Shown here piece by piece: positions 1 to 18,502 of a stretch of 20,000 bases of DNA. The stretch covers positions 176,553 to 196,552 of the forward strand of contig QPGO01000151.1 in assembly GCA_008632985.1 (NCBI GenBank). The letters are read 5' to 3'. The notes beneath the pieces are model-generated. The model was not told the origin of the DNA. It did not search any database and worked only from the letters and a program-made list of their open reading frames with translations. Positions within the stretch are counted from its first letter, which is position 1. Each line of letters begins with the position of its first letter. A program made the translations under genes and the position numbers. The DNA is from Psammoneis japonica. Its lineage: Eukaryota.

Positions 1-128
1 TGCAACAGTGGATTGGATGCCAGTTGTGAGCACTTGTTCAAATTTTACAGGTTGGAAAGTTCCGGACATGACATTGAGGAAGGCAGAGGGGTGAGAGCAA
101 GATGATGAGCAAGGGTCAAGACAAAAAC

Positions 129-190
129 ACCAAACCCCAGCAAGCTCCAATTGCTGGAAAACCAAACCCCAGCAAGCTTTCATTGCTGTT
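129..190 (+). repeat. Two-copy 32-bp-period tandem repeat
   Basis: ACCAAACCCCAGCAAGCT at 129-146 and 161-178, each followed 3 nt later by ATTGCTG. Confidence 0.8.
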
Positions 191-318
191 GCGCCCTTGG
201 CCAAACGATGCTCTGGATTGGTGGGCACAGAGGGATGGCCAAGAGCATGGGGGCCCAGATGGCAAAGCAAAGACAGGAAGTTCCAGTCGCAAGCCTCCCA
301 AAAATGCAATGTGGAGTG

Positions 319-359
319 TTTGGGCTGCAGCCCTTTTGGCAGCATGGCTGCAGCCCAAA
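319..359. repeat. Perfect 14-bp inverted repeat with 13-nt loop
   Basis: TTTGGGCTGCAGCC (319-332) and GGCTGCAGCCCAAA (346-359). Confidence 0.85.
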
Positions 360-546
360 AAATAAAATCAGCTTGTGATTTGAACAATCTGGCATGCAAT
401 GAGTGGCAGCGCCATTGTTCTTCACACACATCATGCAACATAGAGTGGACGCACAATGTGAAGCTGCAAACGATGAAAACTGCCATTCAAACAAAATGCA
501 AAATTCATCAATTGATGTTTGAAACTGAGCAATTTGAAAATTGTAA

Positions 547-746
547 AAAATGTTGGGAACATCATCCGCATGGTTGTTGTGTTTGAATTTTCTTGTGATG
601 CATGACAAAAAAAAATGCATCAGAACTGAGATTTCCAGCACGGTGTGCGAGAATGTTCAAATTAAAATCAAGAATTTTTTGGCATGATGGGCAAGAATGT
701 CATGTGCGCATTCAAACACGATGTCAGATTGTTGCCCTGCCAGATG
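547..746 (+). repeat. Dispersed repeat, copy A (partner of 16682-16860)
   Basis: Aligns by eye to the reverse complement of 16682-16860, including identical AGAATGTTCAAATTAAAATCAA and CGATGTCAGAT..TTGCCC.GCCAGATG. Confidence 0.9.
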
Positions 747-1839
747 CAATGGCAGTGATTTTATGATTCAATGTGTTTTTGAGCAGAGTGGTGAATGGCA
801 AACACACTTCTGATTCAGACGTGTTCCAGCTCCAGGTGGGACCTCGTGCTGCTGAACTGTGACATCAATGGTTTTTTGGGTCACACCACATGTGGCGCAC
901 GCAGATGGCTGCATGTGACATGCTGCAAAATTCTTTCACACTCCCTGTTTTGCAAAGCCAAAGGCTTTCTATTTTCAACATTTGCAAGAGCAAAAATGCG
1001 CTGGGCACATTCTTCAATGTCTGCAGAACACACCCAGGCAAACTGTCAATGATGTGCTTCAAGTGTGAAGGAGGAGATGTGTTCGTAAAATTGCCTCTTT
1101 TTCTGTTGGTGATCATTTGCATTTTCATTGCTTGACAAATTTACTGTGGAGCTCGTGTGCAGAATTCTGCGAGCCAAATGTCGCACCGAGTCCCACCTGG
1201 GACTGGAGCCCATCTTCAACACAGTTTTGTGCCTTGTCCACCAAGACCACAGCCTCCTCCTTGCACTGTTCCAACTCCTCAACAAAGTTGACACAGATTC
1301 TTGTTAAAATGTGTTCGAGTTCTTAAAGAAGCACACATTCCTTCCTTCCCCCTCACAAGTTGACCGCCAAGCTGGCGCAGCAGCCAGCGCAGTTTTTGTT
1401 CCAGTGCCTCAGCAAGCACTGACATGAACTGAACAATGAGGATTCACCTTTTGAGTGATCTTGTCAATGAGTTCCTGATGTTGCACCATGAACTGCCTGT
1501 GACCGACATCCGAGGATTCAAAAGATTCCTGCTGATGCATCGACTGCACCTGAGCATCATGTTTTGCTTGCAAATCCATCGTCATGTTGCCAACAAAGGG
1601 TGCTTTGTTTGGTTGCATTTGAATGCCACCATCTTGCTTGCATTTGAGCATCAGCTGCAAAACAGTCCTCTCCCTTGATGAATGAACATCAAGACAGGTG
1701 GGTCCTGACACCAGCTCTTCATGAGCTCCGTGAGCCATCATGCTCTGGCGAGTCGACGCATGCACACACACTGATGACACTGCATCACACGATGGCACAG
1801 CTGAGATTGATGTGCTCTGTGAAAATTTCAATGTCGTGT

Positions 1840-2269
1840 CAACAGGAATCATTCGAAAATGTCGTGTGGGTCACAATTGATGTTTTGCATGAGTGAAAAC
1901 ACAAAATCGTGCAGAAATGCACACAAAGTCATGCGAGAGAGTGATTGGAGCTGACAACTTTTCGGGAACTGAATTGAAATGCTGTCTGATTGATGGTGTT
2001 GGCCTTCACTGTGTGAATCAAAATGCCATCAATCAGACGGCATTTCAATTGATTTCCCGAGAAGTTGACATTCACACATGGATGGATGGACAGACTGATG
2101 ACAATTGTTTTCAGTGCTCTCCTGCACAATTTTCACGTGATGACTCTCAGGACCCGAATGATTCCTGTTGCTGACAAGATGTTTCTATTTTGTTGCAGGC
2201 ACTCTGCAACAGAGAGCAGTTGTTCTCTTTGTGCTTGGTTCAGATTGCAATGGGAATCTTTCGAAAATG
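1840..2269. repeat. Nested foldback/MITE-like inverted-repeat structure
   Basis: Inner 46-bp arms 1955-2000/2022-2067; middle arms 1903-1914/2122-2133; perfect outer 16-bp arms CAACAGGAATCATTCG 1840-1855/2155-2170; diverged direct copy of the outer motif at 2248-2269. Confidence 0.8.
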
Positions 2270-2360
2270 ACCCGTGACGTAAAAAGCACAAAACAGCTGT
2301 GGACACCTGCAGAATCTACATGTTTTTGTGCTGAAACTGTTATGTTCACACAATTTGTGC

Positions 2361-2453
2361 AAAAATAGACTTGACTGTTATCGGGTCAGGTGTATTTTTG
2401 CAAATGCATTGAAGAAAAATACACCTGATCAGAAAACAGTCAAGTCCATTTTT
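2361..2453. repeat. 39-bp inverted repeat (4 mismatches, 15-nt loop) at the edge of the TA-depleted domain
   Basis: AAAAATAGACTTGACTGTTATCGGGTCAGGTGTATTTTT (2361-2399) pairs with 2415-2453. Confidence 0.9.
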
Positions 2454-3220
2454 CGCAAAGTTAAAATTCACTAAGGACAGACAGACAGACTTTTCAATAA
2501 TTATCTTGGTACTGTTCTACACATTTCTACGTAAATGACTCTACAGCGCGAAAGATTGCTATTGAGATGTTTCTGCTGCAAAAAGTCTGTCCATCGTGAG
2601 CAAGCGACAACTCATCAATCGATATTTTCAAGAACTTATAATATTTATGCTTATTAATTGCCGGAAATTCCCACCCAAATTTGTATTCATATCTTAATTT
2701 GTCAAATTGATACTCCTACCAATGCTGATTTACGTGGCCATCTAGTACTAATGTACGCAACGGCGATCACGCACATGTATTATGTGATATTACATCACGA
2801 TGGTTTCTTAATGAACGTAGAACTGAAAAAATGTTGACCACGTAGGTTCCTACGTGCTATGTACAGAAGATGTACTGCACAGTACCGGCATGCAACCCTG
2901 CCGCCAGCCTGACCTGCTTGCCATGCACGCTTCTCACAGTTCACCCCTCGCGAAAATTGCCACGCACACGCAAACCCACAGACACAATGCTGACAAAGCC
3001 GTTCGGATCCGGACGTTGAACGAGAGGAGAGTGTTTTGCCACGATAGATTCATAAACCAAGAACGACCAAGTCCCGGTTCCAGTTGCTCTTCTAACGCGA
3101 AGAACGACGCTCAACTGTTCTAAATCGATTCGTATTGACGTTGTATCAACCGACGAAAAGTTTGTTGCACACACGAACACTCGATAGATCGCCGAATTCA
3201 AATCTATAATAGTACACACC

Positions 3221-5167
3221 ATGGCACGCACGCACGGTCGCCTTCGTCGCCTGCTCCGACCCAAGTCTTCGCGAGAGATGGAGAAGGCACTCCGTTCTGT
3301 GGCAATCGATTCTGTTCCATCTGAAGAAAGCACTCTCCCAGAATCAGAAGTTTGTTCCACTTCCAGCACCGGAGGTCTTTCGCAAGCGGATTCAGACGAA
3401 GACCTCTTTGAGCTATCCACCACCAACGACCCTTATGCAGATGTCCGTGAACGCATGGAAGAATTGGCAGCAGAGGACAAGGCCATGTTTGCCAATCACG
3501 ACGCTACAAAAGAAGCAGAAGCGCATCACGCTGCAGAGCCTTCGATCCCGTCCTTTGCTGCGTACACAACCTATCTCGGTTACGCTGTGTTGATTATCTG
3601 CGGGCACATTCGTGACATTTGCGCTCGCCTTATTCGAACCGGCCGTTATCTTCGTCGGCATACGGACTTTCCCAGTGACGACCTGACCAAGTACGCGACT
3701 CTGCTCAAGAGCTGGGAGAACTTTTACACGAGGCGGCTCTATCACCGAATTCAGGACTGCTTTAACCGTCCCATTGCTTCGAGACCTGGTGCCCACATTC
3801 AAGTGCTGGAGCGTGTCTCTGCGGATGGAAACAAAACCATGGAGCTGTTGGGGCAGCTCGATAACCTTGAGACGGAGCAGCAGAGACGAGAGTACTCGGA
3901 GGGATCGCATTTTCATACAGTTTCTGAAGGTCGTGTGGCGAGGTCTTGCCTCAACTTGGGTAGTTACAACTACCTTGGTTTTGCCGACGACTGGGATATC
4001 ACTTGCCGAAACGACGTCATGGGCTCTCTCAAGCAACTCCCGGTTAGCACAGGCTCTAGCAGAATTGAATTCGGAACAACGGCCTTGCACCGCGAGGTGG
4101 AGGAACTGGTGGCTGGCTTTGTAGGAAAGGAGGATGCCATGGTACTCAATATGGGGTTCAACACGAATGCCACCACGATCCCGGCGCTTGTATCGAGGGG
4201 TGATTTGCTCATTTCGGACGCACTCAATCACACGAGCATTGTGAATGGTGCTCGCGCTTCGGGTGCGTCTATTCGTACGTTCCGCCACAATGACATGACT
4301 CACTTGGAAAAGATTCTCCGCGAAGCCATTGTCATGGGAATGCCCCGAACAAGACGTCCCTGGAACAAGATTCTTGTCATTGTGGAAGGAATATACTCCA
4401 TGGAGGGCGAATACTGTGACTTGAAGAATGTCGTTCGCATTTGCAAAAAGTACGGTGCCTACATTTACCTCGATGAAGCCCATTCGATTGGCGCCATGGG
4501 ACCAACTGGACGAGGCTGCGCTGAGTACACGGGAGTCAATCCGGATGACATTGATATCATGATGGGCACCTTTACAAAGAGCTTTGGTGGCATGGGCGGG
4601 TACATTGCCGGAAGCAAGGACGTGATTTCCTTTCTGAGGCGGAAATGTGCTGGTAGCTCATACCACAACTCGCTTAGTCCAGTGGTTTGTCAACAGATTA
4701 TCTCCAGCTTCAAGGTATGTGTCATGGTTCTGTGTTGTATGCGACTACTGTGATTATGATTTTCGCGTTGACTAACTAAATTTTATTATCTACGTTTTCA
4801 GGTCATTATGGGACAAGACGGTACCAATATCGGAAAGCAGAAGCTCCAGGCACTTCGCGATAACTCCAACTACTTTCGCATGCGCCTAACAGACATGGGC
4901 CTTCACGTTCTCGGCCACTATGACTCACCCATTATGCCCGTCATGTTGTACAACCCAACAAAGATTGCTGCGTTTTCCCGCGAGTGTCTCAAGCGAGGAC
5001 TTGCCGTGGTTGTCGTGGGTTTCCCTGCCGTTCCCATTCTCATGTCGCGGGCCAGGTTCTGCATCTCGGCTGGGCATACCCGAGAGGACTTGGACAGGGC
5101 TCTCCACGAGATTGATGAAATTGCAGATATCCTCAAACTGAGGTATGCTCGTTCTACGTTTGGCTGA
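3221..5167 (+). CDS. LCB2: Serine palmitoyltransferase catalytic subunit 2; exons 3221-4714 and 4802-5167, ~619 aa
   Basis: Motifs [48 protein letters not shown]-lysine [24 protein letters not shown]. Intron 4715-4801 (GTATGT..ACTAAC..CAG) joins FK|VIMG in frame. Confidence 0.96.
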
Positions 5168-5399
5168 GCTACACACCAAGTGCAATTCCACGGTCAGACA
5201 CGACTATGGTGCTCTACAATTCTTAATCTTTTATTGCCTGCAAGAGCTCGCTGTCTTGTGTAATTGTTTTATAATGAAAGCAGTTGTTTGTATCTCGTTA
5301 ACGCTCTGTCGTCTGATTACCGAATAACGAACGAACATACATGCTTAAAGAGGTACGCCTGATCTGAGTGAAAGAGAAGTCCTCAGGTGAGCTCTCATT

Positions 5400-5520
5400 C
5401 CTATTAGTCTCTACGCAGGCTTGCAGTTTGGTCAAGTGGTTGAGCACCACCACTATGCTAGGTAGACTGTAGACTGCTAGAGTAGTCTACCCTAGTCTAC
5501 TAGCTAGAAGTAGCTAGCGC
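5400..5520. repeat. TAG/CTA-rich low-complexity intergenic patch
   Basis: ...GCTAGGTAGACTGTAGACTGCTAGAGTAGTCTACCCTAGTCTACTAGCTAGAAGTAGCTAGC. Confidence 0.7.
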
Positions 5521-5787
5521 TCTTGACCGACAACTCCATCTTACTCTACCGTTAATGCCGGATGATGGTGGTGATGGGAGTGCACAGTGCGCGCGACGAA
5601 GAATGAACGACCACGCGACCACCGCCCGACACGTCAGTTTTTTTCGTTTGCTGGGCAAGCAAAATGTGAACAGCGGCTATGATATCGATTGGGGACGAAA
5701 TTGAAAATAAACGCATTTTTGTGCGGCATCGGTGCCTCAATCCTGTTGACTTTGCCTGACGATAGTTTTCAGATAGAGAGAATAGCC

Positions 5788-6416
5788 ATGCTGAACTACG
5801 CTCCAACACTTTTGCTTCTACTTGTCTCTCTCATCGGAGGGAGCAATGCATTCTTTGGTTCTGTGGGTGCAGGCGGAAAGCCTTCGGTTTCATCGCCTCA
5901 AGCCGATGAGGCCGTAGCGATTTACGGGGAGAAGTATCCGTTCGACCAGCCGGCGAAGGAGGGGAACTCACTTGCTAGTTTTGGCATGCCCAGCAAAAAA
6001 ACCTACGGACCAGAGGCGCGCCGTCGATTCACAGACAAGAGCGAAGCGGCAGTCCGTGCTACCTTTGCGGAGCTTGCCAAGAACTATGGCACCGACAATG
6101 CTCTGGAAATGGTGAAAGTCATGCCCACGTGCTTGGCTTTTAACAAGGACAACTTTGCACCTTCGCTAGCCAACTTTGGAGAAATCTTTGGTGAAGAAGA
6201 GGCGCAGCAAATGGTTCAACGCAATCCAGGTTTGCTGGCAGTAAAACCCGCGGATGCAGCCACATCCACTGAACAGACAATGGTATTTTCTTACATTGTG
6301 GGTGTGACACGTCCGGTAGGGGGGATTCTATTGGGTGCTTTGGCCATTGCCCTTTGTCGTTACCAGTCGAAGCGGTGACTGGAGTATCGCTTCGTTCCGT
6401 CATCTTTGGACAATAG
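5788..6416 (+). CDS. Putative plastid-targeted protein of unknown function with C-terminal TM helix; apparent 1-nt frameshift near 6354
   Basis: ATG 5788 gives hydrophobic signal peptide MLNYAPTLLLLLVSLIGGSNA followed by F (ASAFAP-like). As given, the ORF stops at 6378; adding one T to the TTT run yields ...ALAIALLSLPVEAVTGVSLRSVIFGQ* ending at 6416. Confidence 0.75.
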
Positions 6417-7125
6417 ACACAGACGACGCTCATGTGAAAGCCTATACTGCTCACGCAAGGCAAAACTTATAATTCGATAATTCCATAGGATTGAAGATAC
6501 CGGTTTTTGAAAAGGCAGTTGACTGCAGTTCTAGAGAGAGGAAATCTTCTTACCGGTATATTCTCTACTGGAAGCTTCAAAACATTGGAAGTTGTGATTG
6601 CGTGTAGGTAAGAGAGAGAGAGAGAGGAAATAAACAACACTATTACATGCCAGTGGTATGGTACTGTACCGTCCGTTTCAGCTCTCTCGCTCTCTCCACT
6701 GATCTTGTGAGAAGATGGAAGGGGATATTTCCTGCAACCTCAGATTCTGAATATTTTAATTTCTTTTCACATTTCATGTGTGTTAAATAGAAATATTTAT
6801 TACATAAATACCTTGTAGATTGGACAAAGTAGTTCTGTTACGAACTTATATACTATTATAGATGGAATAAGGATTAATATGGCAATTGGACATTAATATA
6901 GATATTCGTAGGCATAGGTGAACAAACCCTGCTCTGACGTTGTCTGAATTTTTTCGAAAAAAGAGTCGGGAACAAACACGGAACAACAAGATCGAATGAA
7001 AACAGCCGTGACACGAACGTCGTCAGCGCTGCTCATTCCACCCCAAAGAAATTCTCACTCCTCGCAACTCAGTGTACGAGTAGAGAAAAACTTGGCTGCT
7101 TTTCCTTTAAACATCACTATCGAGA

Positions 7126-8097
7126 ATGGCTTCGCATCTGCCAGAAGCAAAAAGCTGTTCATCGCAGAAGTTCAACGATATGCATGATAGCGAGTTGACC
7201 TCACCAACTGTTACTGATGCGGGGAGCGTCTCGGATGATGACGGGAGTGGGGGGTGGTTTGGAATCGGTGCCGACCTCAAGACCTTCGCCAGATCTATCA
7301 AAAGCTCCGTACCGAATGCCATTGATGGGATCGCAACGGCTATATCGAAATCCGCCATGGCAGTCGCAGCGGAGTTCAGTGAATTGGAAAGGGATGCTGA
7401 AATAGAAGCGAAGCGGTGGAGGGAGGAAAATTATGGGACGTCGCAGGATCAAGAGGCGGGCGTAACGTTACAGCTGCCTTGGGAGATACAACGTGGTGAT
7501 TCATTGGATACCTTGGTCGAAGACACGGTGCTCAAAATGAAGATTCTTAATCTTAGTCGTGATGAAAACATGTTTTTGAAGCCTTTCAGTGTTTCCGCCG
7601 CATCTGATGGCCGCACGACTTGTGGCAAGGCTGACTTTGTGCTTGACGAAGCAAGAATCGACCTCATCAGGCGTCTGTTAGCAATTGATGAAAGTCTTGC
7701 AACCGTGCACGCCAGACTCTCAGGTGAGAATTGTAACAAAACATGTCAGCAGTGATCAATTCTCTCCAATTATTTGGACCAACACTTTACCCTTGTTTCG
7801 TCCCGTACATCAGGCCGTAGCGATGTCAAGGAAGCTGTTTTCTGGAAAAACTATTTTCATCATTGCGAAAGACTTCGAAAAGAGCACCTTACCAAGAGAA
7901 GACCTAGCCAAGCAATCACATCGGGCTCCTCATTGGGATCCTTAACAGCCGTACGCAGCTGTGGTGAAGACGACGCCGCGTCGTTTGTTATAGCAAGCCC
8001 ACCTCAAAGTATGAACAGTGTTCTTTCCACTCACTCAGTTGGGGATATGGTGCTTGTTGGTGGTATGGAGGCACTTGACACACACGATGAAAAATAG
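7126..8097 (+). CDS. BSD-domain protein; exons 7126-7723 and 7814-8097
   Basis: Phase-1 intron 7724-7813 (GTGAGA..CAG) gives LLAIDESLATVHARLSG|RSDVKEAVFWKNYFHHC, with the BSD FWxNYF signature. Confidence 0.85.
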
Positions 8098-8358
8098 GAA
8101 GAATGGGAGAGTTCTCTCGAGGAGAATTCATACGAGTAGCAGTTAATCTCACTCTCTACTAGAGTGACGCCAAGATAAGAGTCTGATGTTTTTCCTACTT
8201 CTCGATTCTGCTTTTGCCGTAAACCTAGAGAGCAGCACTTAATCTCACTTGGAGAGAGTGGTGTCAAGATGAGGAACTCAAATTGTTTGAAATCAGTTGT
8301 TCTCGATCATGTGTTGCTCGTCGCGCCTGTGCAACCCACGTGAATTTCAGCAATTGTA

Positions 8359-8790
8359 TCCTTCGTTCGAGAGAGAAGAAAGACAAAGGCTATTATATCC
8401 GGTAGGTGCGATAGGCAACATTGGTAGGCATTACCAAGGAGCTTCGTTGCGGCCACATTAACAGTTCTTGGTCCCCGAGGAGTCGTCATTCCGTTGCGAA
8501 AACAGAAGCTAAGATACTGAGGCGAAGCTGTTTGGCGAGAGAAGGCCACTATTACCCTCAATGCAGTACAGTAATGTAGAGTATAAATCCTTCGTTCAAG
8601 AGAGAAGAGAGAGAAAGGCCATTATATCCGGTAGGTGCGATAGGCCACATTGGTAGGCATCACCAAGGAGCTTCGTAGCGGCGACAGTAACAGTTCTTGG
8701 TCCCCGAGGTCATTCGGTTGCGAAAACAGAAGCTGCTATAATGTTTGGCGAGAGAAAGTCACTATTATCCCGGATGCAGTAGAGTATAAA
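8359..8790. repeat. Diverged tandem duplication (8359-8587 and 8588-8790) downstream of the CCT gene
   Basis: Both units begin TCCTTCGTTC.AGAGAGAAGA, share ATTATATCCGGTAGGTGCGATAGGC and TAACAGTTCTTGGTCCCCGAGG, and end GTAGAGTATAAA. Confidence 0.92.
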
Positions 8791-8810
8791 GGTAACGAGG
8801 CGAAACTCAT

Positions 8811-10674
8811 TTATGTTAAACTCATTAGATCCCGCATGAGTAACTCGTCTTCCTTCTTAACAAAACGACCTTTTACTCGAAGTCGACTGTCCGCGAAATT
8901 CTTCCTCACGTCATATTTGACAGTCTTTGTCCAAACGCGATGATTTCTTTTAGCCAGGAAGCGCTCAATCCTAATTTTTCTGCTTTCAGGAGAGTATGCA
9001 CCAATCCACCCATCTGGGCGTTCTACTTCAAGCAGTCCATGAATATCCATTGATGTTCTCAAGTTGGGGTCGCTCATTGATCTTGGGCGGCCTAGGCCAG
9101 ATGCATTCTCCTTCCTCTCTTCTTCTTCAACTCTTTTATCCTGCTTTGCTTTTGCAGCCGCCTTCTTATCCTTCCGCTCCTGCTTCTCGCGTGCCTCCCT
9201 CTCTTTTCTTTCCCGCATGTTCTGCTCTCGCTTTTCTTTCTTCTCTCTCTTCTCCCTCTCCTTTTGTTCTTTCTTGGCGAGTTTCTCACGTCGACGCTCA
9301 GCTGCCAGTTCACTTTTAGTCTTTATCCTAGATTCGCTCTTTGATCTACCGTATTGCGCAAGGCTTGCCCCGATACCGCCCTCGCCTGGATGTGACGGGC
9401 TGCCGCCGGTTACGTTCAGACCCACCATGCCTCCATAAGGGTTTGCCCTTCTAGCTCTGACACATGGGTGATGCACCATCGCCCAAGAATCGGCGGTCGA
9501 CCCAACCACCATAACCATCACGCCCATCCTGTGACGACGGGGTTTCTCCCAAGAGACCACCAAACGCCAACGAGTTCGATCGAAAACGTTGTTGCTCTTC
9601 GAGAATGGTGGGAGACGGATCAATGTGTCCCGATCCAAAAGCTTGCGGCGGCAGCTTGAGGTACTCATCACTTTGGCTAGTAAAATCCCCATTGAACTCC
9701 AAATCCCCAATTCCGTCGTCTCCTTCATAAGCAGATGGTGAAACCATGTTGGGTTGAGCTTCTTCCACCGGATTGTGCTTCTGCTGCGTGACCTGCCCTG
9801 GATCTATTGGAATAGGATTTGAGTGGGTACTCTTTGAAGCAATCCCCAGATGTGACAATATATCTGCATCCGGTGCCCCAGGATGACTCGGCATGTCCAT
9901 ACCGGCGCAGAGATCGTCATCTACAGTCAGAAAATCCAGATCCAAATCATCCAACAAGTTAATGTCAGCTGAAGCGCGATTCAACAGCTTTCCACTCGTG
10001 ATCATGTTTTCGAGAGTGCTCTTGTCTCCCCGTTCATACTTGTCTAGAGCAGACTGTAGATCCTCGTCACCTGAAATAATGAGATCTTTGAGAATAGCCT
10101 TCTGGTGTTGGTCGATGAGTCCTGCGTCTTCCAGTTCCGCAGCAGACCGCAGTCGTCCAGAAATGCTCTGAGGAAACGAGAAACACAAAATGATATTTTA
10201 AGCACGAAATCAAGCAAAAGTTCATGACAACGAAAGCCGAAGATCTGAATTACTTACACCACTTCGCGCACGCTTTCCAAAATGTTGCGCTTCATAAGAA
10301 GACGGGGCGAAGGTCGGAGGAGTGTGCGACAACGGATCCATAATCCCACTGAGAAAAGCACTTCCAGAAGAACCGGCAGATCCAGATTGAAACTCGGGGT
10401 TGTTGGGTGTCGGTATCGGCTTCGAGGCTGGTGGTCGTGTCGGCATTGGCCTTCCAACAGGAATGGGCTCCGTGGTACTCACGGCCGTTTGAGTGGGACC
10501 CGATGTACTAATATTGCCATAACCTTCATCCTCGTTGTTCATCGCAGCAACCATATGCGCAACGGTCATGTCCACTCCAGACGACTCGTCAATGTTGAAC
10601 CCCAAGGAAGAGTACTCATCGTCGGTGTGCGAGCTGCCGAGGCGCTCTGCGGACCCTTTCAAATCAGCGCTCAT
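8811..10674 (-). CDS. CCT-domain (CONSTANS/CO-like/TOC1) protein; exon 1 10674-10258, exon 2 from 10167, apparent frameshift near 9445-9470
   Basis: C-terminal WIGAYSPESRKIRIERFLAKRNHRVWTKTVKYDVRKNFADSRLRVKGRFVK is a CCT motif, preceded by a K/E/R coiled coil. Intron 10168-10257 (GTAAGT..CAG) joins RARSG|SISGRLRSA. Confidence 0.88.
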
Positions 10675-11260
10675 CACTGAATTCTCTCTCTCGTGATGTC
10701 GCTTCGTGTCTCAACGGTACCGGTAGGCTTTCTGCTTTCTCCGAAATTACGTGATCAAAGATTGCTTTTCTGTGAATGCAATAGTGTGCAATCGAGATAG
10801 ATTGCGTTGTTCTTGTCAGTTCCAGTTATGATAATGCTATAGGCTTGCTCTACATACCGAGTGGGATTGATTCTTGAAGGGTTGATTGAGGGGGTCGACG
10901 CGGTCAACCATGAGCGTGTTGCCGGCTGTTCCGATCGATGAAAATACCACGCGGGATGCACCGATACCAGAGTTTTACGTGGCGTTCTACAGGGTTCAGA
11001 ATTTGATAGTGATTTGGTCCAATATGAATGAAATTTCATCAAAGTTCTGGGCCATAAATAAATCTAAATGTTCTGACTCCTCACTGAGTCACTGTTTTCT
11101 GATTTCGTTAAGTAAATATAACTTTTATTGCTTCATACAAATATATGAATAATGACATTTCCGAAATCACCTTTTCCCGCCAAAGCAACTCACAAAAGAT
11201 GCCAAAAAAACCAACGCAACATTATTATTATTTGAACATACAGTAGTGGCGAACTTGACC

Positions 11261-11781
11261 ATGTCTTTTCTTCTCAAGTCACCCTTGCTCAAGTCGCTGT
11301 TTCGGGTGCCTGCCCCACCGCGGCCTACCGTTCCATCCGGAAAACAGCGAATTTGTGTCGCGGGATATGGCACATCGCACAACACGGGAAGGGCTCAAAA
11401 AATTGCTTTGGAAATCTCGCTGCTCCATCCAGATCGTTTCGAGACTTGGTTTTACTTTTCCTCTTTTCATTATCATGACTTTTTGAAAGAAATCAAAAAG
11501 GAGATTCCAAAAGAGCAATTGACTAGCAAATCCACAATGGATTCGGAAGGAACCATGGTTGAACACCGCTCGTCGCCTTTTGTTTGGTTGGAGCGCTCGG
11601 ACGAGAAAAATGACAAGATTATCGACGCTATTGGAGGCGAGACAGATTTTGTGAATGGGTCAACAAGCAGTTCCCAAATGATGCATCGATCCAAAAGTTG
11701 GCAACACTCAATGAACCTCCGCTGACGGAACTGTTCTTTGACAATGCAACACCGGGTGGAACGTGGATGGAGACGAAATGA
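11261..11781 (+). CDS. Glutaredoxin/thioredoxin-like fold protein lacking CxxC; apparent 1-nt frameshift at ~11637
   Basis: RICVAGYGTSHNTGRA...HRSSPFVWLE...IGG, then in the -1 frame RDRFCEWVNKQFP...GGTWMETK* (stop 11779-11781). The cis-Pro-like SP and IGGxD motifs are typical of the Grx fold. Confidence 0.7.
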
Positions 11782-12232
11782 TTAGTTATGGATTACTGAC
11801 TCTCCAACAACCGGCAACTCGTTCGTATCGAGTATAAAGATGTAGAATTGTTGGTAGCCATATAAAGTAATAGAACTCTACCCAGTTAGGGAGGTTGTTA
11901 GAGAACAGCCAGCAGGTTCAACCGGAAAGTATTGTAGCTTAAGAGCAGCACATTGCAAGGCTCCTGGCACGACGAAACAAGAAAGGCACTGAAAACTTGA
12001 TGCGGCCTTCTGTGTTCCGACCATAAGGTGACATTCGACCCAACCACCGGATTGGTAAAGAAAAACAGTGCAGTATTATTAGGTACCTTGCAGCGATACG
12101 GAGCATAACTAACTTTGAAAGTCAAAATCGTTGTGCTAATTGTTACACAATGTGAATATTTGGGATCGGTAGCAAGTAAAGAATGAAAAGTGATGCTTTG
12201 GAACCTAAAGCAGCGCAGATGTACTACACTAT

Positions 12233-13523
12233 TTAGTCGTCCATCGGAAAGGCCTCTTCGTTCTCGATTTCATTCAAGTGCGGGTCAGACTCTTCTTCCA
12301 ATATCGTTGCACACCTACTAGCTCCCTCGACAAGGACACCCAGGGAGGCGCTGCGAGGTCTTCGCGAGTATGCTCGGCCTCCTTGATCGCTCTCTGATGT
12401 AAGGAGGGATTCGACAGTAGGATCATTTCGATTGCCGACAAAGTCATGCGGAACAAGAACTGATCTCCCTTGCTTGACCTTGAACGTCGAAGTTTCATCG
12501 CAGCTTTCTGCTCTCAAGCGGCGCTGCTTGGCCGCAACCCCAGAGAGCTCGACGAGCCCTCCTTGCACACGGTCATCTCGAGTGGCATTCAGGAGAGCTG
12601 TCATTTTATCCATATACGTTGAAGTGCTGTCTAGACTCTTTCCCAGCATCGACGGAACAACGGGCCCTCCAGGTGTAGCTTGACATTCAGTAGCAGCAGC
12701 AACTGCGCTTATTTTCCCGCTCATCAACTCAGAAGCGGAGGGCAGACTAGTACTAAACATAGATTCTCCAGTTGAGTCTTGAGGTTGTCTGCACGGTGGC
12801 GGCGGCATCGCTTTGGCAGACGAAGAACGAATGAGTCGGCCTGGAATAACAACACTAGTCGTTTCAGATGAATGCTTTTGTTTTGACAATGCCCGTCTCG
12901 TCTTTCCTCCGCCGGGTGAATGCTTTCCCCCTTCAAGTATGCTCCTTGCATGTCTTGCCATGAGTGAGCAGACGAGACATACATGTTGTTGTTGCTGCCG
13001 TCCAGAGGCTTTCTGCGCTTGCTTTTGTCTGCCTTGACGAGCTCTGATCTCTCGGCACTGATCATAATGAGCAAGAAGTTTTCTCGTTTGACAGCACCCT
13101 TGAAACTCCTTTGGGCATTCTGAGCTTCCCACAGCCTTACAGGTCTTGATATGCAAAAGGACAATTTTCGATTCGGCACAGCCTCTTACAGGACACCGAT
13201 AAGGGCTCTCGTTGCAACGCTACACCCGACGATACAGAGCCAGTAAGTGAGAATGGCATTAACGGAGAATACTCACAAAATAATTCGTAGAAGAAACTTA
13301 CCTGAGCATGCAATATTATGCACAGCGACGCCGCAGCCTTTTTAGCCTTGGATACAACCGCACCAACATCCGAAGAGCATGAAGGCGATTTCCTATCTAA
13401 AAGTCGTGGTGAAGTTGTCTCGTTCTCAGATCCCATTGGATCAGTTACGTTGTCATCGCTGATGTTTCTCGAACTAGCTTCACTCATTGGTCCCACGGCA
13501 TCACAAACAACAGGAGCTGTCAT
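12233..13523 (-). CDS. TAZ-type zinc-finger protein; exons 13523-13302 and 13219-12233
   Basis: Intron 13220-13301 (GTAAGT..TAG) gives ILHAQ|RCNESPYRCPVRGCAESKIVLLHIKTC...CPKEFQGCCQTRKLLAHYDQC...CLVC, i.e. three HxxxC-C-C Zn sites, then a low-complexity tail. Confidence 0.85.
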
Positions 13524-13952
13524 TGGGAGGACGTCCTTGTGGACTGCCTTCCACTTTTGTTATCCCAATGTATTTCAAATCCGAAAATCAATTTCTTTTC
13601 ATCGATTTTGTGGTTGTCGTTCCATCAATCAAATCGAATTCTTGCGTCTGGCGCGAGCAAAAGCAGTGGATGGAGATGGATGAATTCTGTTCGTTTGCTC
13701 CTCGCCAACCATCAGTCTTGCTTTGCGTTTTTCTCACTTGCGCACACAGAAATTGGTGGTGGATGTTGACGTCGCTTGTCGTAGAAAGGACACAGAGAAC
13801 CTCGTACGAAATGTGTGGCTACAGAGGATTTCGGTACAAACGCACGGCCGGTGAGTCGGTCGCGTGGCGCCAATCAAAATTCAATTATTAATGAACTTAT
13901 AAGATATATACTCTGGTTCAAGTTGGAAGATTGTCTGTGTGTTGTCGTGTCA

Positions 13953-14100
13953 GACTACGGTACTACTCCGTAGTATAAGTACTACTCTAGTAGTTGATTT
14001 CGGCGCGGGCACAAAACAGGACCATGCTCTCTCTAGCTAGAGTAGTAGCTACTACTCTCTCTAGAGTAGCTAGCTAGCTAGCTAGCTAGCAGTAGAGAGT
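13953..14100. repeat. TAG/CTA-rich patch with (CTAG)n microsatellite
   Basis: GACTACGGTACTACTCCGTAGTATAAGTACTACTCTAGTAG and GTAGCTAGCTAGCTAGCTAGCTAGC. Confidence 0.8.
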
Positions 14101-14175
14101 AAAGAAATCGAAAGCCACTCGTGCTGGAGGACAATGAGATTAAGAAGAACTATCGATCGATATAGCTGTTGCTTA

Positions 14176-15602
14176 CTATGGCTTCCAGAGAAAGCTATCA
14201 AACATTCGCTTTCCCATTTCAACGCCCAGAAAGAGAGCAGCGTTCGCTGGGAAAGCTCGAAGAAGTGTTGGCCCTAATCCGCTAAAAAGACCTGGCACAC
14301 CCCTTTCTCGCGCGATTTGCATCAACTTAGGAAAATAGCTACCGACAACCTTTGTGTCCCAGCTAGATTGCACATTTGTCTTTGGCACGTCAAACGGCAT
14401 GGCGACTGAAAACAACCCATAATGCAAATGAAACGGTGAGAGGACCCGTCAGTCTCGTCAATGTTGACTAGAAACGTCAACAGGCAAAATCTGTCTTACC
14501 TGTCCATCCAAACATACCGGCTAGCCCCCCACTTCACAGCGGCCACAATGTATTTCGAATCAGGGAAGAGAAAGCATTCAGTCTTGTTATCGTTTCGATA
14601 GCAACAATCAGCAGGTAGGGCCCTACATCGCCTCACCTTATAAAGAAATTCAATTCATCTGGCATAGATGGTGTGTACGTTCGGAAAAAGTATTTAGATA
14701 GCTCGTACCCACCAAAGAAAAAGGCATAGAAGGATCCATCACGCATCAATTGAGCATCAAAACCTACAAACATTGACTGGGGGGTCGAAAACACACTAAA
14801 CGATTCAGTGGATCATCTGCGCACGGCGAAGAGTTTCGTCGCATTTTCCGGACGTACCCTGATTCCTTGCTTCTTCAACATTTCTCTAATGATGTCATTG
14901 GATGATTTTGAACCAACAACTACCTGCGTCTTTGCCTTTATGGCGCGAGTGGTGAACGCAACTTATGTGAGTGATCGAGTTTTTCGTTGGAAGTAAAATT
15001 ATGTCGACCCTCAGGGACTGGTATCCTTACCTTCACAACCTCACTCGGCAACAAGACAGTTGCAGAGCAACAGCCAGTAAATGATCCCTATCGCGTATAC
15101 AGTGAGAAAGAAACCATGGTGACAAAGATATTAGCAACGCTGTACGAAAAACAAGCAGGCTGTTGACGGACTCGGCCACCCACCATGAAAAACGGCTTAA
15201 CGAGATCAGGTCGTCCACCTTGAATTCGTTCTTCTGGATCGTCGGGGAAAGCTCGTTTTAGCGCTTCATTCACTCCGAAGGCCATTGCATTCTCAAGAGC
15301 CATTCCCGCTGCCGTTGGGACCGACCCTTTCCAGAAAGCTGCTATACCCTAGTTGCGAAATCAAAGTAAACTGAGAAAAGAAAACAAGAAAAAATTCCCG
15401 CACACTAACACTCCTCACTTCATACCTCATTTTTGAATATGCTTGATGTGGTTGAAAGAACTCCAGGATATTCCGCAGGATTCGTCTGCATTCTAACCTT
15501 GATCGTGTCGAGAGGCTGACCAGTATAACAGCAAGTTATCGATCCTAACGTCGCCGAAAATACGTCCTTGCTCACTTCACGAGGGTCGGCAATGTCTCCC
15601 AT
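14176..15602 (-). CDS. Mitochondrial carrier (SLC25), probably amino-acid/ornithine/carnitine type; 7 exons: 15602-15426, 15348-15184, 15087-15031, 14935-14858, 14776-14637, 14531-14500, 14405-14176 (292 aa)
   Basis: Three Px[DE]xxK signatures (PLDTIKVRMQ, PSEVVKAKTQ, PFDVPKTNVQ), FWKG, LMRD and LLRAFPANAALF. Six GT-AG introns give an intact 879-nt frame. Confidence 0.92.
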
Positions 15603-16681
15603 GGTTGCTTGCGCTTTCCCTGCTAATATTTCGAACTAAGTTGGAAAGTGCGCTCTCTGCCGATGCCACAACAGAAGAGTTCAAGTGGCGCGCGGTTGAG
15701 TGGATTTGGAGAGATTTGAAGTGGTTTTTGTGAAAATCGTGTTGTGAGAAAAAAATTGCAGCCAGCAGCCAAAATCGGTCTTGAGACAGAGGCTGGTTGT
15801 GCCATTGCCCAGGCAGGTGCGAGATCTCAGAGATGCAAGTGGATGTCAAAGCGATGAGAGCTCTGCAAGAGCCACCCACAGCTCCATGGCCATGTTTAGA
15901 TGGGAAAATGCAAAACCTTGTCTTTCTGCCCTCAGTGTCTGAGCTGCCTGTCTGTGGGGCATGGCGGGCGGCAGCACCAAGACACACAACAGCAGCTTTC
16001 ACTGCGGCAGATGAAAAACACACTCCCGGCAACAGGCATGCAAAAAAAGACTTCTGCAGCAAGCCAAAAAGGGCAGCAAGCTTGAGCTCAGCTCTCAAAA
16101 TGTGAGGTGCAGATTGGCCCATTGAGAGTGGTGGGGGGGTGCTGCTGGTGTGTCACCTGCTTGTGCAGCACTTTGTCCGTGCTTTTTGCTTTGAGTTTCT
16201 TGGCTCTCCAGCCTCTTGTGTGTGAAATGTCACATGTCACAAGGCATCCATCACCCAGCTGTTTCATTGCAGCATTGTCTGCTCTCCAAATTTGCTGACA
16301 AACAAACTCCTTCTTTTGTTGCAACCACCATGACACTCAACAACTGTCACACCACAGTGGCGCGCAGCACACCAGCCAGCCAGACAACACAGCTGATCAT
16401 CAGCCAGCAAGCACACAAGCATGCACACACATCAACATGCATCAAAAACAACTTCATAATTTCATGTGCAGCTGACACCCCCCCTGGAGCATTTTTTCAG
16501 TTTGTCAAAGTTCTCTCTGTTGTGCTGCCAGAGTCTTCAATTTTGGAGCCAGCTCAAGATCTGGCTGCACAGAGACCACCAGCATGCCATTTGAGGTCAT
16601 GACTTGGCAGGAGTTGCAACAGCAACACACTTGTTTTTTTTGTTCTCATGTGTGCACCACTTAAAAAAAATGAGATCTGTT

Positions 16682-16860
16682 CATCTGGCGGGGCAATGAT
16701 CTGACATCGCATGTGCGCAACGTGCCAACAAATTTTTGATTTTAATTTGAACATTCTTGCATGCTGTGCAAGAAATCTTGGTTCTGATTTCAACATTTTT
16801 GGCATGTTGTGCAAGAAAACTCAAATGTGACAAGCACACGGATGACATTCCAAACATTTT
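16682..16860 (-). repeat. Dispersed repeat, copy B (partner of 547-746)
   Basis: Reverse complement aligns to 547-746 apart from a ~20 nt indel; differences are dominated by TG<->CA and CG<->TG/CA. Confidence 0.9.
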
Positions 16861-17350
16861 CAAGTGCAGCACTTGGTCGCCTTTCACCGTGTGACAAATT
16901 GCTTTCCGTTCACTCCTCTTTTCAGCATGAAACAAATTGCTTTCTGGTCACTCTGCTTTTCACCATGTGACAAACCACTTTCCATTCAATCCCCAATTCA
17001 CATCACTTGCAAACTCTGCTTTTCTTTTCTTTTAAGGCCAATTTTGTTCTGACATTCAAATGACATCCTGTCTCTAATCCAACTTGCATTGGTTCCAGAT
17101 GTGAGTTGATTCTTGGTTAATTTTGCTGTTGTTGTTGTGCACTGTTTGCCAGTGAGTGTTGCCATTCAGCTGCCTGTGCGTTCGTGCTGAGCTCCTTGGC
17201 CGCTGCTGTGGGTTGTTGTTTGCTCTGCCTTCTCCTGAACCCATTCAGGTTGAAGCACTGTTGTCCATGGCCTCTGCTGCTGGAGTCTCTTCCTCTCTTT
17301 TCTTGTGTCCATTGTTCCTCCCTGCTGCTTCCCCTTTGCTGTTGCTCCAA

Positions 17351-18502
17351 TCAGTTTTTGGAGCTGCCCATCCCTTCACACTGTTCTTTTTTTTTCCTCT
17401 TTCTTTTCTTTCCCCACGCACTCTCCAATTTCTTTGTCTGCAGGTGTTGTGCATCAACTCTGGCACACTCTGTTCTCTCCTCCACCACCACATTGTGCAG
17501 CTCATTCATTGTGCCTTTTGATTCCACTCTGGCTCCATTTTTGATTTCTCTTTTCTTCCTGTCCCTGGAATGTGCACTTTGGGGGCACGGGCTGTGTTGG
17601 CTCTTGCACCTCTTGTCCTCCTTGAATTGGGTTTCTGTCTCCACCATTGCCATCATCATCCAGCAGCAGTTGTTGCACATGAGCCTTGCAAAAGCCTCCA
17701 TGCTTGTCATCAGCCAATCACCAATGGCCTGGTTTTCCTCTGTCTCAAATTGTTCCATTCCAGCTGCCATAGAACAGAGCTGTTCTAAGAACTGGATGTG
17801 CACCGGTGGTGATGCCCTTTGCTTTTCAATGTCTGCTGCACTCTCTAGACCCCGTGTCTGGCCATGGCCAACCAATGACAAATGTGTGAGCAGCACTTTC
17901 CATCCCATTTGCATGCCACCTGCATCGCATGTGCCAATCGTCTTTTTCCAAAATGCCTCCTGTCTGTTGTTTCATCTCTGATTTAGTCTTTTCCTCACCT
18001 TCTCCTTGTTCAGCTCCCAGCAAGCTGTGCAGTCACTGTTGGCCACATTGAGGTGCTTGCAAACCTTTTTCTGCATTTTGCTGCCAAACACCAACTCAAC
18101 ATTGTCATGCACTACAAACTTGGTCTTTGGGTGCACTGCCATCACAACACAGTTGGTCATTTGACCATCCATGAACTTCCTCTTGGCTTCCTCTGAGCTG
18201 ACGACTAACATCCCTGCAATCTCCACATTTTGGGATCCCATCTCTGCCACATCATGGGTGCCAACTGTAACCAACAACACAGTCCGTGTCAGCGGCATGC
18301 CCGTGTCTGTCTCAGTGTTGCTCTTGCCGCAATGCACTGCCTGATGAATTGTTTCATGCTGACATGATTGCCCACCCATCTCCACAGTGTTGTGCACACA
18401 ATTTTTTTTCTTCCGCCTTGAATGGAGGCCAATTGTGCCTGCCAGCATGCCAATGGCCTGTCTTTTTTTCTGCTCCTCCTCTTTGAATGCCAAAATTTTC
18501 AA
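17351..18502 (-). pseudogene. Fossil protein-coding sequence, probably a TE-associated ORF
   Basis: ORFs 17972-18502 and 17351-17914 are in one frame, separated by a single TGA (R-*-N-N, plausibly CGA->TGA). Protein-like segments PKTKFVV..ELVFGSKMQKKVC..WELNKEKVRKRLNQR and TSMEAFARL..NN; no Tyr. Confidence 0.5.

Follow-up and report, generated by a model that had tools for sequence, protein, structure and literature searches.

Dispersed-repeat blocks nearly devoid of TpA flank a gene island in the diatom Psammoneis japonica

Analysis of a 20,000-nucleotide stretch of the genome of the diatom Psammoneis japonica (contig QPGO01000151.1, positions 176,553 to 196,552; hereafter the window) reveals two blocks, one at each end, from which the dinucleotide TA is almost entirely missing, which are poor in CG and rich in CA and TG, and which enclose a gene-bearing island of normal composition. 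The blocks are best explained as old repeat DNA of the diatom nuclear genome that has undergone CpG decay together with an independent, probably enzymatic, transition process at TpA, a reading to which we assign a probability of roughly 0.7. A TA-targeted signature has so far been reported once, in the unrelated alga Bigelowiella natans, and as far as the literature found goes the present one is the first in a diatom; a search judged by titles and the openings of abstracts, with most subscription journals outside it, retrieved no diatom report of TpA loss.

A two-state dinucleotide Viterbi segmentation divides the window into an erased left block (1–2366), a TA-normal island (2367–15714) and an erased right block (15715–20000), none of which is assigned a strand; its states were trained on the window itself and it is thus not independent of the observation. 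The blocks continue past the left and the right end of the window, respectively. By exact count positions 1–2340 of the left block hold 14 TA (observed/expected ratio, o/e, 0.08), 48 CG (0.40), 248 CA (1.73) and 274 TG (1.87), in close agreement with an earlier note on the same DNA that had counted about 15 TA and about 47 CG by hand. In 2000 mononucleotide shuffles of these positions TA numbered 174.0 ± 9.4 (minimum 144), CG 120.1 ± 8.4 (minimum 91) and CA+TG 290.3 ± 13.1 (maximum 333), the observed values being 14, 48 and 522. At the right end (15901–20000) the o/e ratios of TA, CG, CA and TG are 0.07, 0.22, 1.95 and 1.82, and in the middle of the window (2501–15500) they are 0.64, 0.97, 1.12 and 1.11, respectively; non-coding 500-bp windows of the island reach TA values of 0.83–0.91. 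The TA remaining in the blocks amounts to 8–9% of the local non-coding level and the CG to 22–40%, which bears out the earlier note's statement that TA has been lost more completely than CG, and a simple exponential estimate puts the rate of TA loss at 1.5–2.7 times that of CG. The same note had pointed to some 850 bp without TA (1330–2180); at 862 bp (1325–2185) this stretch is the longest of its kind in the window, TA-free gaps in the normal part not exceeding 211 bp. TAA and TAG triplets, counted on both strands, number 14+4 and 20+12 in the two blocks versus 259+275 in the island, and the TA sites that survive in the blocks favour TTA/TAA.

The losses of TA and of CpG switch at nearly the same coordinates. 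At the left boundary TA is back at about 2317 and CG at about 2530; at the right boundary the last dense TA lies at 15637 and the next one at 15897, and CG thins after 15693. Exactly at the left boundary stands a palindromic element of 93 bp (2361–2453, no strand; I3) with 39-nt arms (90%), which retains TA at 2366, 2379, 2393 and 2420.

The island serves as an internal control, which is recognised not only by its TA and CG ratios (0.64 and 0.97) but also by the depth of DNA run X1, by spliced contigs of run X2 and by Pfam matches. The genes on it are spliced, and their best relatives come from diatoms. The first is a serine palmitoyltransferase-like gene on the forward strand (3221–5167; two exons seen, intron 4713–4799) with PF00155 matches at 2.7e-35 and 3.6e-8, diatom relatives that are 63–79% identical, and an X2 joint 4712/4800 of the GT..AG type. 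A CCT-motif gene lies on the reverse strand (8811–9728; PF06203, 2e-16), where an X2 contig over 8872–10874 shows a joint 10167/10258 (CT..AC). A mitochondrial-carrier gene with several exons also lies on the reverse strand (14176–15602; PF00153 at 3.9e-6 on 15420–15635, and exon-like frames); some 110 bp separate its start codon from the right erased block. The region 12233–13156 gave no usable lead from the Protein Atlas. Contigs of X2, a run labelled 'DNA?', carry GT..AG joints on the island and in this respect behave like RNA; on the blocks they amount to a trace at 668–1334 only within 1–2668 and to zero on 16009–20000, a blank that is not evidence of silence.

Comparison of the remaining dinucleotides indicates how the blocks came to lack TA. 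The share of pyrimidine-purine (YR) steps is 0.25 and 0.244 in the blocks versus 0.237 in the island, and AT, AC, GT and GC in the blocks stay at 0.89–1.30. Since the YR share is unchanged, TA and CG must have been converted by transitions within YpR steps to CA/TG. Indeed, 345 of the 420 YRYR tetramers in the blocks are TGCA, CACA, TGTG or CATG, versus 219 of 681 in the island, and these four are the products expected from every YR step collapsing to TG or CA. The counts of TG and CA are nearly equal (277/252 in the left block, 487/485 in the right one), hence both strands were hit. In two repeat pairs common to the blocks, 10 of the 67 aligned YR-YR columns pair CA with TG, whereas this holds for none of the 37 columns of a tandem duplication inside the TA-normal island, which implies that each copy resolved its sites on its own once the two had separated; no column among the 67 pairs TA with CA or TG. 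Columns of the CA:TG kind can arise from ancestral CpG or TpA alike, by a rough estimate about half from each.

Part of this pattern is that of 5mC decay in methylated transposable elements: judged by composition, CG o/e falls to 0.40 and 0.22 versus 0.97 in the island, TpG and CpA are gained, and the effect is confined to repeats. Diatom transposable elements do carry CpG methylation, dependent on DNMT5a, according to the part of the literature consulted (PMC9998398). Decay of this kind accounts for the CpG half of the signal only, and as an explanation of the whole it is rejected, TA standing at 0.08 although the change from CpG to TpG/CpA cannot remove it. Since C-to-T change at CpA would create TA and CpG decay leaves TA untouched, a second, TpA-specific process is needed, and the earlier note's view that CpG methylation decay did not produce the signal as a side effect is supported.

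The direction of change can be followed in a decayed gene copy on the reverse strand of the right block (17354–18520), assigned by homology, in which 389 codons lie in one frame interrupted by one TGA (17972–17974). Small proteins of an unnamed family match its residues 79–202, and two further proteins match residues 227–380; altogether 25 proteins are matched at E ≤ 0.001, the best at 1.6e-17. In a local tblastn search all 30 of the family proteins used match 17354–18520, with E between 1e-8 and 8e-23, and elsewhere in the window E stays at 0.04 or above. Where the family conserves Arg, three codons of the copy read CAG, TGA and TGG, for Gln, stop and Trp. Two columns in which the family keeps an aromatic residue, F/W/Y in one and F/Y/W in the other, hold the His codon CAC and the Cys codon TGC, which are the two outcomes of change in TAC. 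Tyr is absent from the 389 codons versus 2.0% in the family, and Cys and His amount to 4.6% and 4.4% versus 2.3% and 2.0%. These codon changes give the direction of change, from TA and CG to CA/TG. A Tyr ancestor at the two aromatic columns would be only the most parsimonious reading, the family majority there being Phe (12 F, 6 W, 3 Y and 9 F, 7 Y, 3 W). As for the family itself, no Pfam family was found among the 11 members scanned and no protein name among 13 matches in the protein collection; 30 pattern matches in viral contigs included no confirmed relative, and a confident structure model (mean pLDDT 80.4) had no Foldseek match in the PDB at E ≤ 0.001. Across 30 family members Tyr set against Cys+His gave no sign of erosion (rho -0.27, p 0.16). 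The length of open frames was rejected as a marker of relic genes, not being significant against second-order Markov simulations: the longest open frame of the right block was reached in 9% of the simulations and its longest one-stop frame in 7%, the corresponding figures for the left block being 50% and 66%. The long frames in the blocks are a by-product of TA loss, and the relic at 17354–18520 is recognised by homology, not by openness.

The erased blocks are dispersed-repeat DNA. From run X1, which is possibly the source of the window's assembly, so that agreement between the two is not independent evidence, 2714 contigs align to the window at 80% likeness or more. Their summed depth per bin is 52.6–69.4 over 2669–16675 and rises above this only in flank bins, to 225, 41687, 1823 and 7348 in those of the left block and to 355–704 over 16676–18676 in the right block; differences among X1 copies comprise 604 transitions versus 215 transversions. 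Within the window, a repeat segment of the left block (378–693, reverse strand) was delimited by blastn self-comparison, alignments and the inverted pair I1. Its parts 547–693 and 378–542 are about 75% alike to 16714–16860 and 18494–18655 of the right block; the two halves adjoin in the left block and their right-block counterparts are 1.6 kb apart. The bin of highest depth (668–1334, 41687) contains a short piece common to very many contigs (817–878, no strand), on which an X3 contig also lies. The sequence flanking this piece differs among other contigs on both sides, with loose ends at 816/818 before it and at 878 behind it; no Rfam family corresponds to it, and the whole window gave no Rfam match. 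A hairpin-forming inverted repeat (1952–2070, no strand; I2) with 58-nt arms (81%) and a 3-nt loop is also situated inside the left block. None of the 46 stop-to-stop frames of at least 70 residues in the blocks, and none of the 16 such open frames in the left block, reaches the curated Pfam cut-off, and the left-block frame 1412–1870 gave no usable lead from the Protein Atlas.

One part of the right block departs from the rule. The bin 16009–16675 has an X1 depth of 58.0, like the single-copy middle, and yet 16001–16500 contains one TA (o/e 0.03), which argues against equating erased with currently repeated DNA. Together with the uniform erasure across unequal repeat abundance, this bin is more easily explained by a regional process than by one coupled to cycles of copying. 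The earlier note had envisaged TA-normal gene islands set against TA-erased repeat blocks: inside the window the division stands, the erased sequence being recurrent in X1 and the normal sequence carrying spliced genes, but the bin 16009–16675 speaks against a simple rule by which erased means repeated.

On the reading preferred here, the blocks would be old, non-coding, repeat-derived DNA of the diatom nuclear genome in which two kinds of transition, each specific to one dinucleotide, have all but run their course. One would be the usual loss of methylated CpG to TpG/CpA. The other, independent of it, would turn TpA into TpG or CpA (A:T to G:C at TpA) on both strands, would act in place after insertion of the copies, and would end within about 100–200 bp of neighbouring genes. 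Both processes would feed the same two products, hence CA/TG stand at about 1.8–1.95 times expectation with the YpR total unchanged. By analogy, we take the TpA process to be of the same kind as in B. natans, where silenced or foreign DNA would be edited in a targeted and probably enzymatic way; we infer that its targeting is regional and that it may be linked to 5mC. Its likeliest chemistry would be deamination of adenine to hypoxanthine, which is read as G, at 5'-TA-3', a suggestion that we make tentatively. What is at hand is an end state, from which the mutation process is read.

In B. natans mutations of this type have been observed as they arose. According to the preprint, 230 of the 231 mutations in two integrated viral regions of mutation-accumulation lines were A>G or T>C, all 230 were at TpA, and they occurred at about 1000 times background, in bursts of 2 to 45 per line in 11 of 15 lines and in place in single-copy DNA; adenine deamination with an ADAT2-like candidate is proposed (Mettrop et al., bioRxiv 10.64898/2026.01.13.699255). 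The diatom blocks resemble the giant-virus and virophage hypermutation described there in the depletion of TpA with a gain of CpA+TpG, on both strands and against the usual GC-to-AT bias, and in forming multi-kb clusters, which in B. natans lie in foreign, transposon-like or unannotatable sequence and in the diatom in repeats. They pass the cluster thresholds given for B. natans (Rho TpA ≤ 0.43, Rho CpA+TpG ≥ 1.52) by wide margins, with TA at 0.07–0.08 and CA/TG at 1.73–1.95, and their lengths are at least 2366 bp and at least 4286 bp, both being cut by the window ends and the left one lying below 3 kb only for that reason. On the other hand, B. natans is a rhizarian (a chlorarachniophyte) and the present host a diatom, i.e. 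a stramenopile. Erasure is far more complete in the diatom (TA o/e 0.07–0.08 versus 0.45 in the B. natans giant-virus region), and its targets are dispersed non-coding repeats instead of recognisable viral genes. Strong CpG loss accompanies the TA loss in the diatom, whereas the term 'CpG' is absent from the main text of the preprint. Finally, the B. natans mutations were measured directly, whereas in the diatom blocks the signature is known from sequence alone. Among 76 metagenome loci (9 diatom-like, 67 others) none contained an erased window, defined as any 500 bp with TA o/e < 0.25 and CA/TG > 1.5; the 9 diatom-like loci (66 kb, around the serine palmitoyltransferase gene) are on contigs that are short and gene-rich, and they provide no evidence of the feature in other diatoms.

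The blocks share with ascomycete RIP context-specific transitions confined to repeats, a destroyed coding capacity and a sharp contrast with adjoining genes. RIP, however, changes CpA to TpA and raises TpA/ApT, the usual thresholds being TpA/ApT > 0.89 and (CpA+TpG)/(ApC+GpT) < 1.03, whereas the left and right blocks have 0.09 and 0.07 for the former index and 2.0 and 2.05 for the latter, and their G+C content is not lowered (0.45–0.47 versus 0.47 in the island). Fungal RIP was rejected, the direction being reversed. It is conceivable, as a bolder proposal that we would place below even odds, that diatoms have a chromatin-directed 'reverse RIP', in which TpA deamination (or modification of T) would proceed through silenced repeats beside cytosine methylation until TA is near extinct; it would be homologous to the chlorarachniophyte system and an old genome defence of the SAR group, and diatom genomes would be split into TA-normal islands and TA-erased blocks.

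Biased mismatch repair is an unlikely source of the TA loss. It would consist in T:G to C:G repair in methylated DNA that captures replication mismatches at T:A in TpA and slowly turns TA into CA/TG, and the shift of TA and CpG loss at nearly the same coordinates is what would follow from a common dependence on methylation. Strand-coordinated CA/TG tracts, which a processive deaminase acting on single strands might produce, are absent from the blocks (runs test, z -0.78 and 0.19); this favours repair, but the test is weak, most CA/TG being original. Such repair should, however, protect CpG if it erases more than 90% of TA, yet 60–78% of the CpG is gone, and the bursts described in B. natans resemble induced activity more than a steady repair bias. 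We know of no eukaryotic biased-repair system of this kind. A precedent exists in the CTAG depletion of E. coli and Salmonella, which has been ascribed to very-short-patch repair (Bhagwat and McClelland 1992, as cited in PMC5337935) and which likewise replaces T:A with C:G within TA and is tied to the 5mC-deamination machinery; unlike the blocks it is bacterial, concerns one tetranucleotide, is genome-wide and not regional, and is far milder.

Equally doubtful is thymine as the target, that is, modification of T at TpA in silenced DNA (e.g. to 5-hydroxymethyluracil) that makes it mispair with G and yields T>C. A>G on one strand is T>C on the other, so that the bases themselves do not separate the two targets. 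In dinoflagellates 5-hydroxymethyluracil sits preferentially at TpA and TpC; we met no sign of such a base in diatoms, and the B. natans study proposes adenine deamination.

Editing at the RNA level, by which repeat dsRNA would be edited A-to-I with a 5'-U preference by an ADAR-like enzyme, reverse-transcribed and reinserted, is very improbable, although the blocks are repeats. ADARs are, to our knowledge, confined to animals. Homologous sites in the window differ between copies (the 10 of 67 columns above), both strands are equally affected, and erasure is equally complete at very different abundance and in the piece of single-copy depth. Moreover, none of the 46 block frames has a reverse transcriptase or other retroelement domain in Pfam, and the B. 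natans mutations occurred in place, in single-copy DNA. What speaks for RNA editing, apart from the repeat nature of the blocks, is the preference of ADAR for U before the edited A (Discussion of bioRxiv 10.64898/2026.01.13.699255).

We give hardly any weight to the idea that no mutational process was involved, the DNA never having had TA (a foreign source, an odd satellite) or TA having been selected against (e.g. through TA-specific transposon insertion or DNA structure). Nothing specific favours it beyond the existence of TA-poor composition in some genomes. The blocks are complex sequence and no satellite, the other members of the decayed gene's family have a normal Tyr content, conversion, and not avoidance, predicts an unchanged YR share and a collapse of YRYR, and selection on 6.6 kb of non-coding, 75%-alike repeats is implausible. 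A sequencing or assembly artefact, in which TA and CG of repeats carry a modified base and are systematically misread as CA/TG, can practically be dismissed: modified bases do cause systematic miscalls on some platforms, but an X1-built contig over 1146–1874, from what may be the same data, shows 3 differences, none creating TA, the decayed gene also shows transversions, a stop and changes outside TA, as is usual in genuine decay, and CA versus TG at the same site between copies is not expected of a deterministic miscall.

An A:T to G:C process that acts at one dinucleotide and is aimed at repeats would be the mirror image of fungal RIP, and its sole experimental report is in a rhizarian alga; its end state in a diatom, if true, would mean that the process is no peculiarity of one lineage. 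There are consequences for annotation as well. Open frames of at least 70 residues are found at 6.8 per kb in the blocks versus 5.1 in the island, and those of the blocks translate to Cys- and His-rich, Tyr-free sequence, which gene finders may call as orphan genes. Transposons and viral insertions that have decayed by TA loss would evade protein-based annotation, and the repeat and endogenous-virus content of such genomes would therefore be underestimated. Diatoms are ecologically major and include transformable model species, which would open the process to genetics.

Exact counting over positions 1–2340 gives 14 TA and 48 CG (observed/expected ratios of 0.08 and 0.40), together with 248 CA (1.73) and 274 TG (1.87), in agreement with the roughly 15 TA and 47 CG counted by hand in an earlier note. 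The TA-free stretch of about 850 bp that this note placed at 1330–2180 is likewise real, as 1325–2185 is devoid of TA (gap of 862 bp); in its normal part, no TA-free gap exceeds 211 bp. In 2000 shuffled versions of 1–2340 with the same bases, TA occurs 174 ± 9.4 times and always at least 144 times (observed: 14), CA and TG together 290 ± 13 times and at most 333 times (observed: 522). The right end (15901–20000) is in the same state (TA 0.07, CG 0.22, CA 1.95, TG 1.82), and it can thus be confirmed that TA is lost more fully than CG and that both sides of the window are erased alike. A two-state dinucleotide model delimits these erased blocks to 1–2366 and 15715–20000 (borders 2366/2367 and 15714/15715); because it was trained on the window itself, it locates the two states and is no proof of them. 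The borders are sharp: on the left, TA returns near 2317 and CG near 2530; on the right, TA ends at 15637 and CG thins beyond 15693, about 110 bp from the start codon of a mitochondrial carrier gene. As an outside control, erased 500-bp windows (TA below 0.25, CA/TG above 1.5) were found in none of 76 metagenome loci that had been retrieved with a different aim. Exactly at the left border lies a 93-bp palindrome (2361–2453; 39-nt arms, 90%) that retains TA, possibly a recent MITE-like insertion, possibly a boundary element.

The island between the blocks (2367–15714) has an ordinary composition (TA 0.64, CG 0.97), with TA at 0.83–0.91 in its non-coding 500-bp windows. Its genes encode an aminotransferase like serine palmitoyltransferase (PF00155; two exons, matching at 2.7e-35 and 3.6e-8), a protein with a CCT motif (2e-16) and the mitochondrial carrier (3.9e-6). 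Three stretches of 87–90 nt with GT..AG ends (4713–4799, 7720–7809 and, on the other strand, 10168–10257) are skipped by contigs of one sequencing run (X2; joints 4712/4800, 7719/7810 and 10167/10258) and read straight through by those of a DNA run (X1); this identifies them as introns, and the genes as nuclear and expressed. The X2 run is labelled as possibly DNA and behaves as a transcriptome. The aminotransferase has 5211 relatives, the best 120 of which share 63–79% identity, an identical match being absent; organism names are attached to seven of these 120, including Nitzschia inconspicua, Craspedostauros australis, Attheya sp. and Nitzschia sp. Nitz4. Three clipped names ('Helic', 'Gra', 'Duri') we take to be Helicotheca, Grammatophora and Durinskia, the last a dinoflagellate carrying a diatom endosymbiont. 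The window is therefore diatom DNA, or that of a very near relative, with proteins absent from the collection searched, and Bigelowiella is excluded as its source. Short, overlapping palindromes occupy 14031–14099; 14061–14096 was skipped as repeat in read mapping, and X1 contigs stop on either side.

The erased blocks are non-coding, none of their 46 stop-to-stop frames of at least 70 aa reaching the Pfam cut-off and an Rfam search giving no match, and they consist of repeats. In the X1 run, 2714 contigs align with the window at 80% likeness; their summed depth is 52.6–69.4 in all 21 bins of 2669–16675, 225, 41687, 1823 and 7348 in the left-block bins and 355–704 over 16676–18676 in the right block, sums that are not copy numbers and indicate related sequence in many different contigs. 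One right-block bin (16009–16675) has a depth of 58.0, like the single-copy middle, yet 16001–16500 holds a single TA (0.03). Differences between the window and the contigs comprise 604 transitions and 215 transversions. One family is common to both blocks, 547–693 and 378–542 (reverse strand) being about 75% like 16714–16860 and 18494–18655; since its halves adjoin in the left block and lie 1.6 kb apart in the right, the left copy resembles a right copy that has lost internal sequence. The earlier picture of gene islands between repeat blocks is hence accurate within this window. The depth of 41687 stems from a 62-nt piece (817–878), a very abundant short element without Rfam match, also present in contigs of X2 and a third run (X3), where the flanks differ on both sides and contain TA and CG. 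A 38-nt unit is repeated three times in tandem at 16882–16995 (79% identity). Over 1304 nt, the X1 contig spanning the right border (15018–16323) has 23 mismatches and 12 gaps relative to the window, against 0–10 mismatches in 762–2801 nt for contigs over the island; this may point to greater allelic or strain divergence at the block edge.

The share of pyrimidine-purine (YR) steps among all dinucleotides is unchanged (0.25 and 0.244 in the blocks, 0.237 in the island) and the purine-pyrimidine steps of the blocks are near expectation (AT 0.96, AC 0.91, GT 0.89, GC 1.30), from which it follows that TA and CG became CA and TG through transitions. Indeed, TGCA, CACA, TGTG and CATG make up 345 of 420 YRYR tetramers in the blocks, as against 219 of 681 island tetramers, and TGCA alone reaches 4.3 times expectation. 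CA and TG are equally frequent in either block, so both strands are affected. Among 67 aligned YR-YR columns of two repeat pairs, 10 pair CA of one copy with TG of its partner, compared with none of 37 in a tandem duplication of the TA-normal island (8358–8786, about 229 bp, 83–93% identity, directly downstream of the CCT-motif gene). Such columns require that a TA or CG of the ancestor was resolved separately in each copy once the two had diverged; alone they have no power to tell the two ancestors apart, a rough estimate giving about half to each.

The right block also contains a decayed gene (17354–18520, minus strand), 389 codons long and interrupted by a single TGA. A search with this stop written as X, against 1.84 billion representatives, gives 25 proteins with E ≤ 0.001 (best 1.6e-17), of which 23 are small proteins aligned to residues 79–202 that share the motif FPxKKF...ELDxG...LQKRVC.KLN...W...VRKKL.RKRNNV, and two align to residues 227–380. 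All 30 family members fetched land on this locus in a local tblastn, with nothing elsewhere in the window below E 0.04. Where 13, 21 and 14 of 22 aligned members have Arg, the window has CAG (Gln), TGA (stop) and TGG (Trp), the codons that CpG decay produces. At two conserved aromatic positions (F12/W6/Y3 and F9/Y7/W3) it has CAC (His) and TGC (Cys), the pair of codons that TAC yields, with Phe, not Tyr, as the majority residue at both. Tyr is absent from the 389 codons (2.0% in the family, about 8 expected), and Cys plus His are twice as frequent as in the family. The direction was therefore from normal coding DNA to TA-free, CpG-poor DNA. The family is conserved and unnamed (83–229 aa), comes from metagenome and Logan contigs only, and has no Pfam family (11 members scanned) and no fold match (Foldseek, PDB, E ≤ 0.001); its helical domain is modelled confidently (pLDDT above 90 for most of residues 51–130). 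It may belong to an undescribed mobile element of marine protists.

Survival of TA in the blocks depends on its context: 27 of 34 remaining sites are preceded by T or followed by A (TTA/TAA), compared with 229 of 587 island sites (Fisher p 6e-6) and 46% expected had survivors been regenerated from CA/TG (p 9e-5). A reaction disfavoured by a 3' A should turn TATA into TGCA more often than into CATG; the 110 TGCA and 73 CATG of the blocks agree with this, as no more than a hint. By a simple exponential estimate that ignores back-mutation, hits per site amount to 2.1–2.5 for TA and 0.9–1.5 for CG, a decay of TA at 1.5–2.7 times the rate of methylated-type CpG alongside it.

CpG decay is ordinary in methylated repeats, and it accounts for the CG half of the signal only; the loss of TA is, as had been claimed, not its by-product. 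Methylation of transposable elements is established in diatoms (PMC9998398). Fungal RIP, opposite in direction, is ruled out for the blocks by TpA/ApT of 0.07–0.09 and (CpA+TpG)/(ApC+GpT) of 2.0. In mutation-accumulation lines of Bigelowiella natans, the mutation rate of two integrated viral regions was about 1000 times that of the remaining genome, with 230 of 231 mutations being A>G or T>C, all 230 at TpA; the authors propose adenine deamination with an ADAT2-like candidate, and the main text of the preprint makes no mention of CpG, diatoms or stramenopiles (10.64898/2026.01.13.699255). This 2026 preprint is the matching precedent for the block signature. We consider it probable (about 0.7) that TpA in silenced repeat DNA of P. 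japonica is edited regionally, A:T to G:C, in the same way as in B. natans, with CpG decay as an underlying second process in the same DNA. Deamination of adenine to hypoxanthine is the chemistry that we tentatively favour; tRNA adenosine deaminases modify A34, a base always preceded by U33, and this would readily provide TpA specificity for such a reaction. That thymine is modified instead seems improbable, as does a biased T:G repair of the VSP kind, for which a precedent exists (PMC5337935). RNA editing fixed through retrotransposition is very unlikely, an innate or selected avoidance of TA still more so, and an artefact is the least likely of all. The literature on diatoms, judged by titles and abstract openings, yielded no report of a TA-erasure signature. 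Within a kind of system described once, what is new here is the lineage and the extreme end state.
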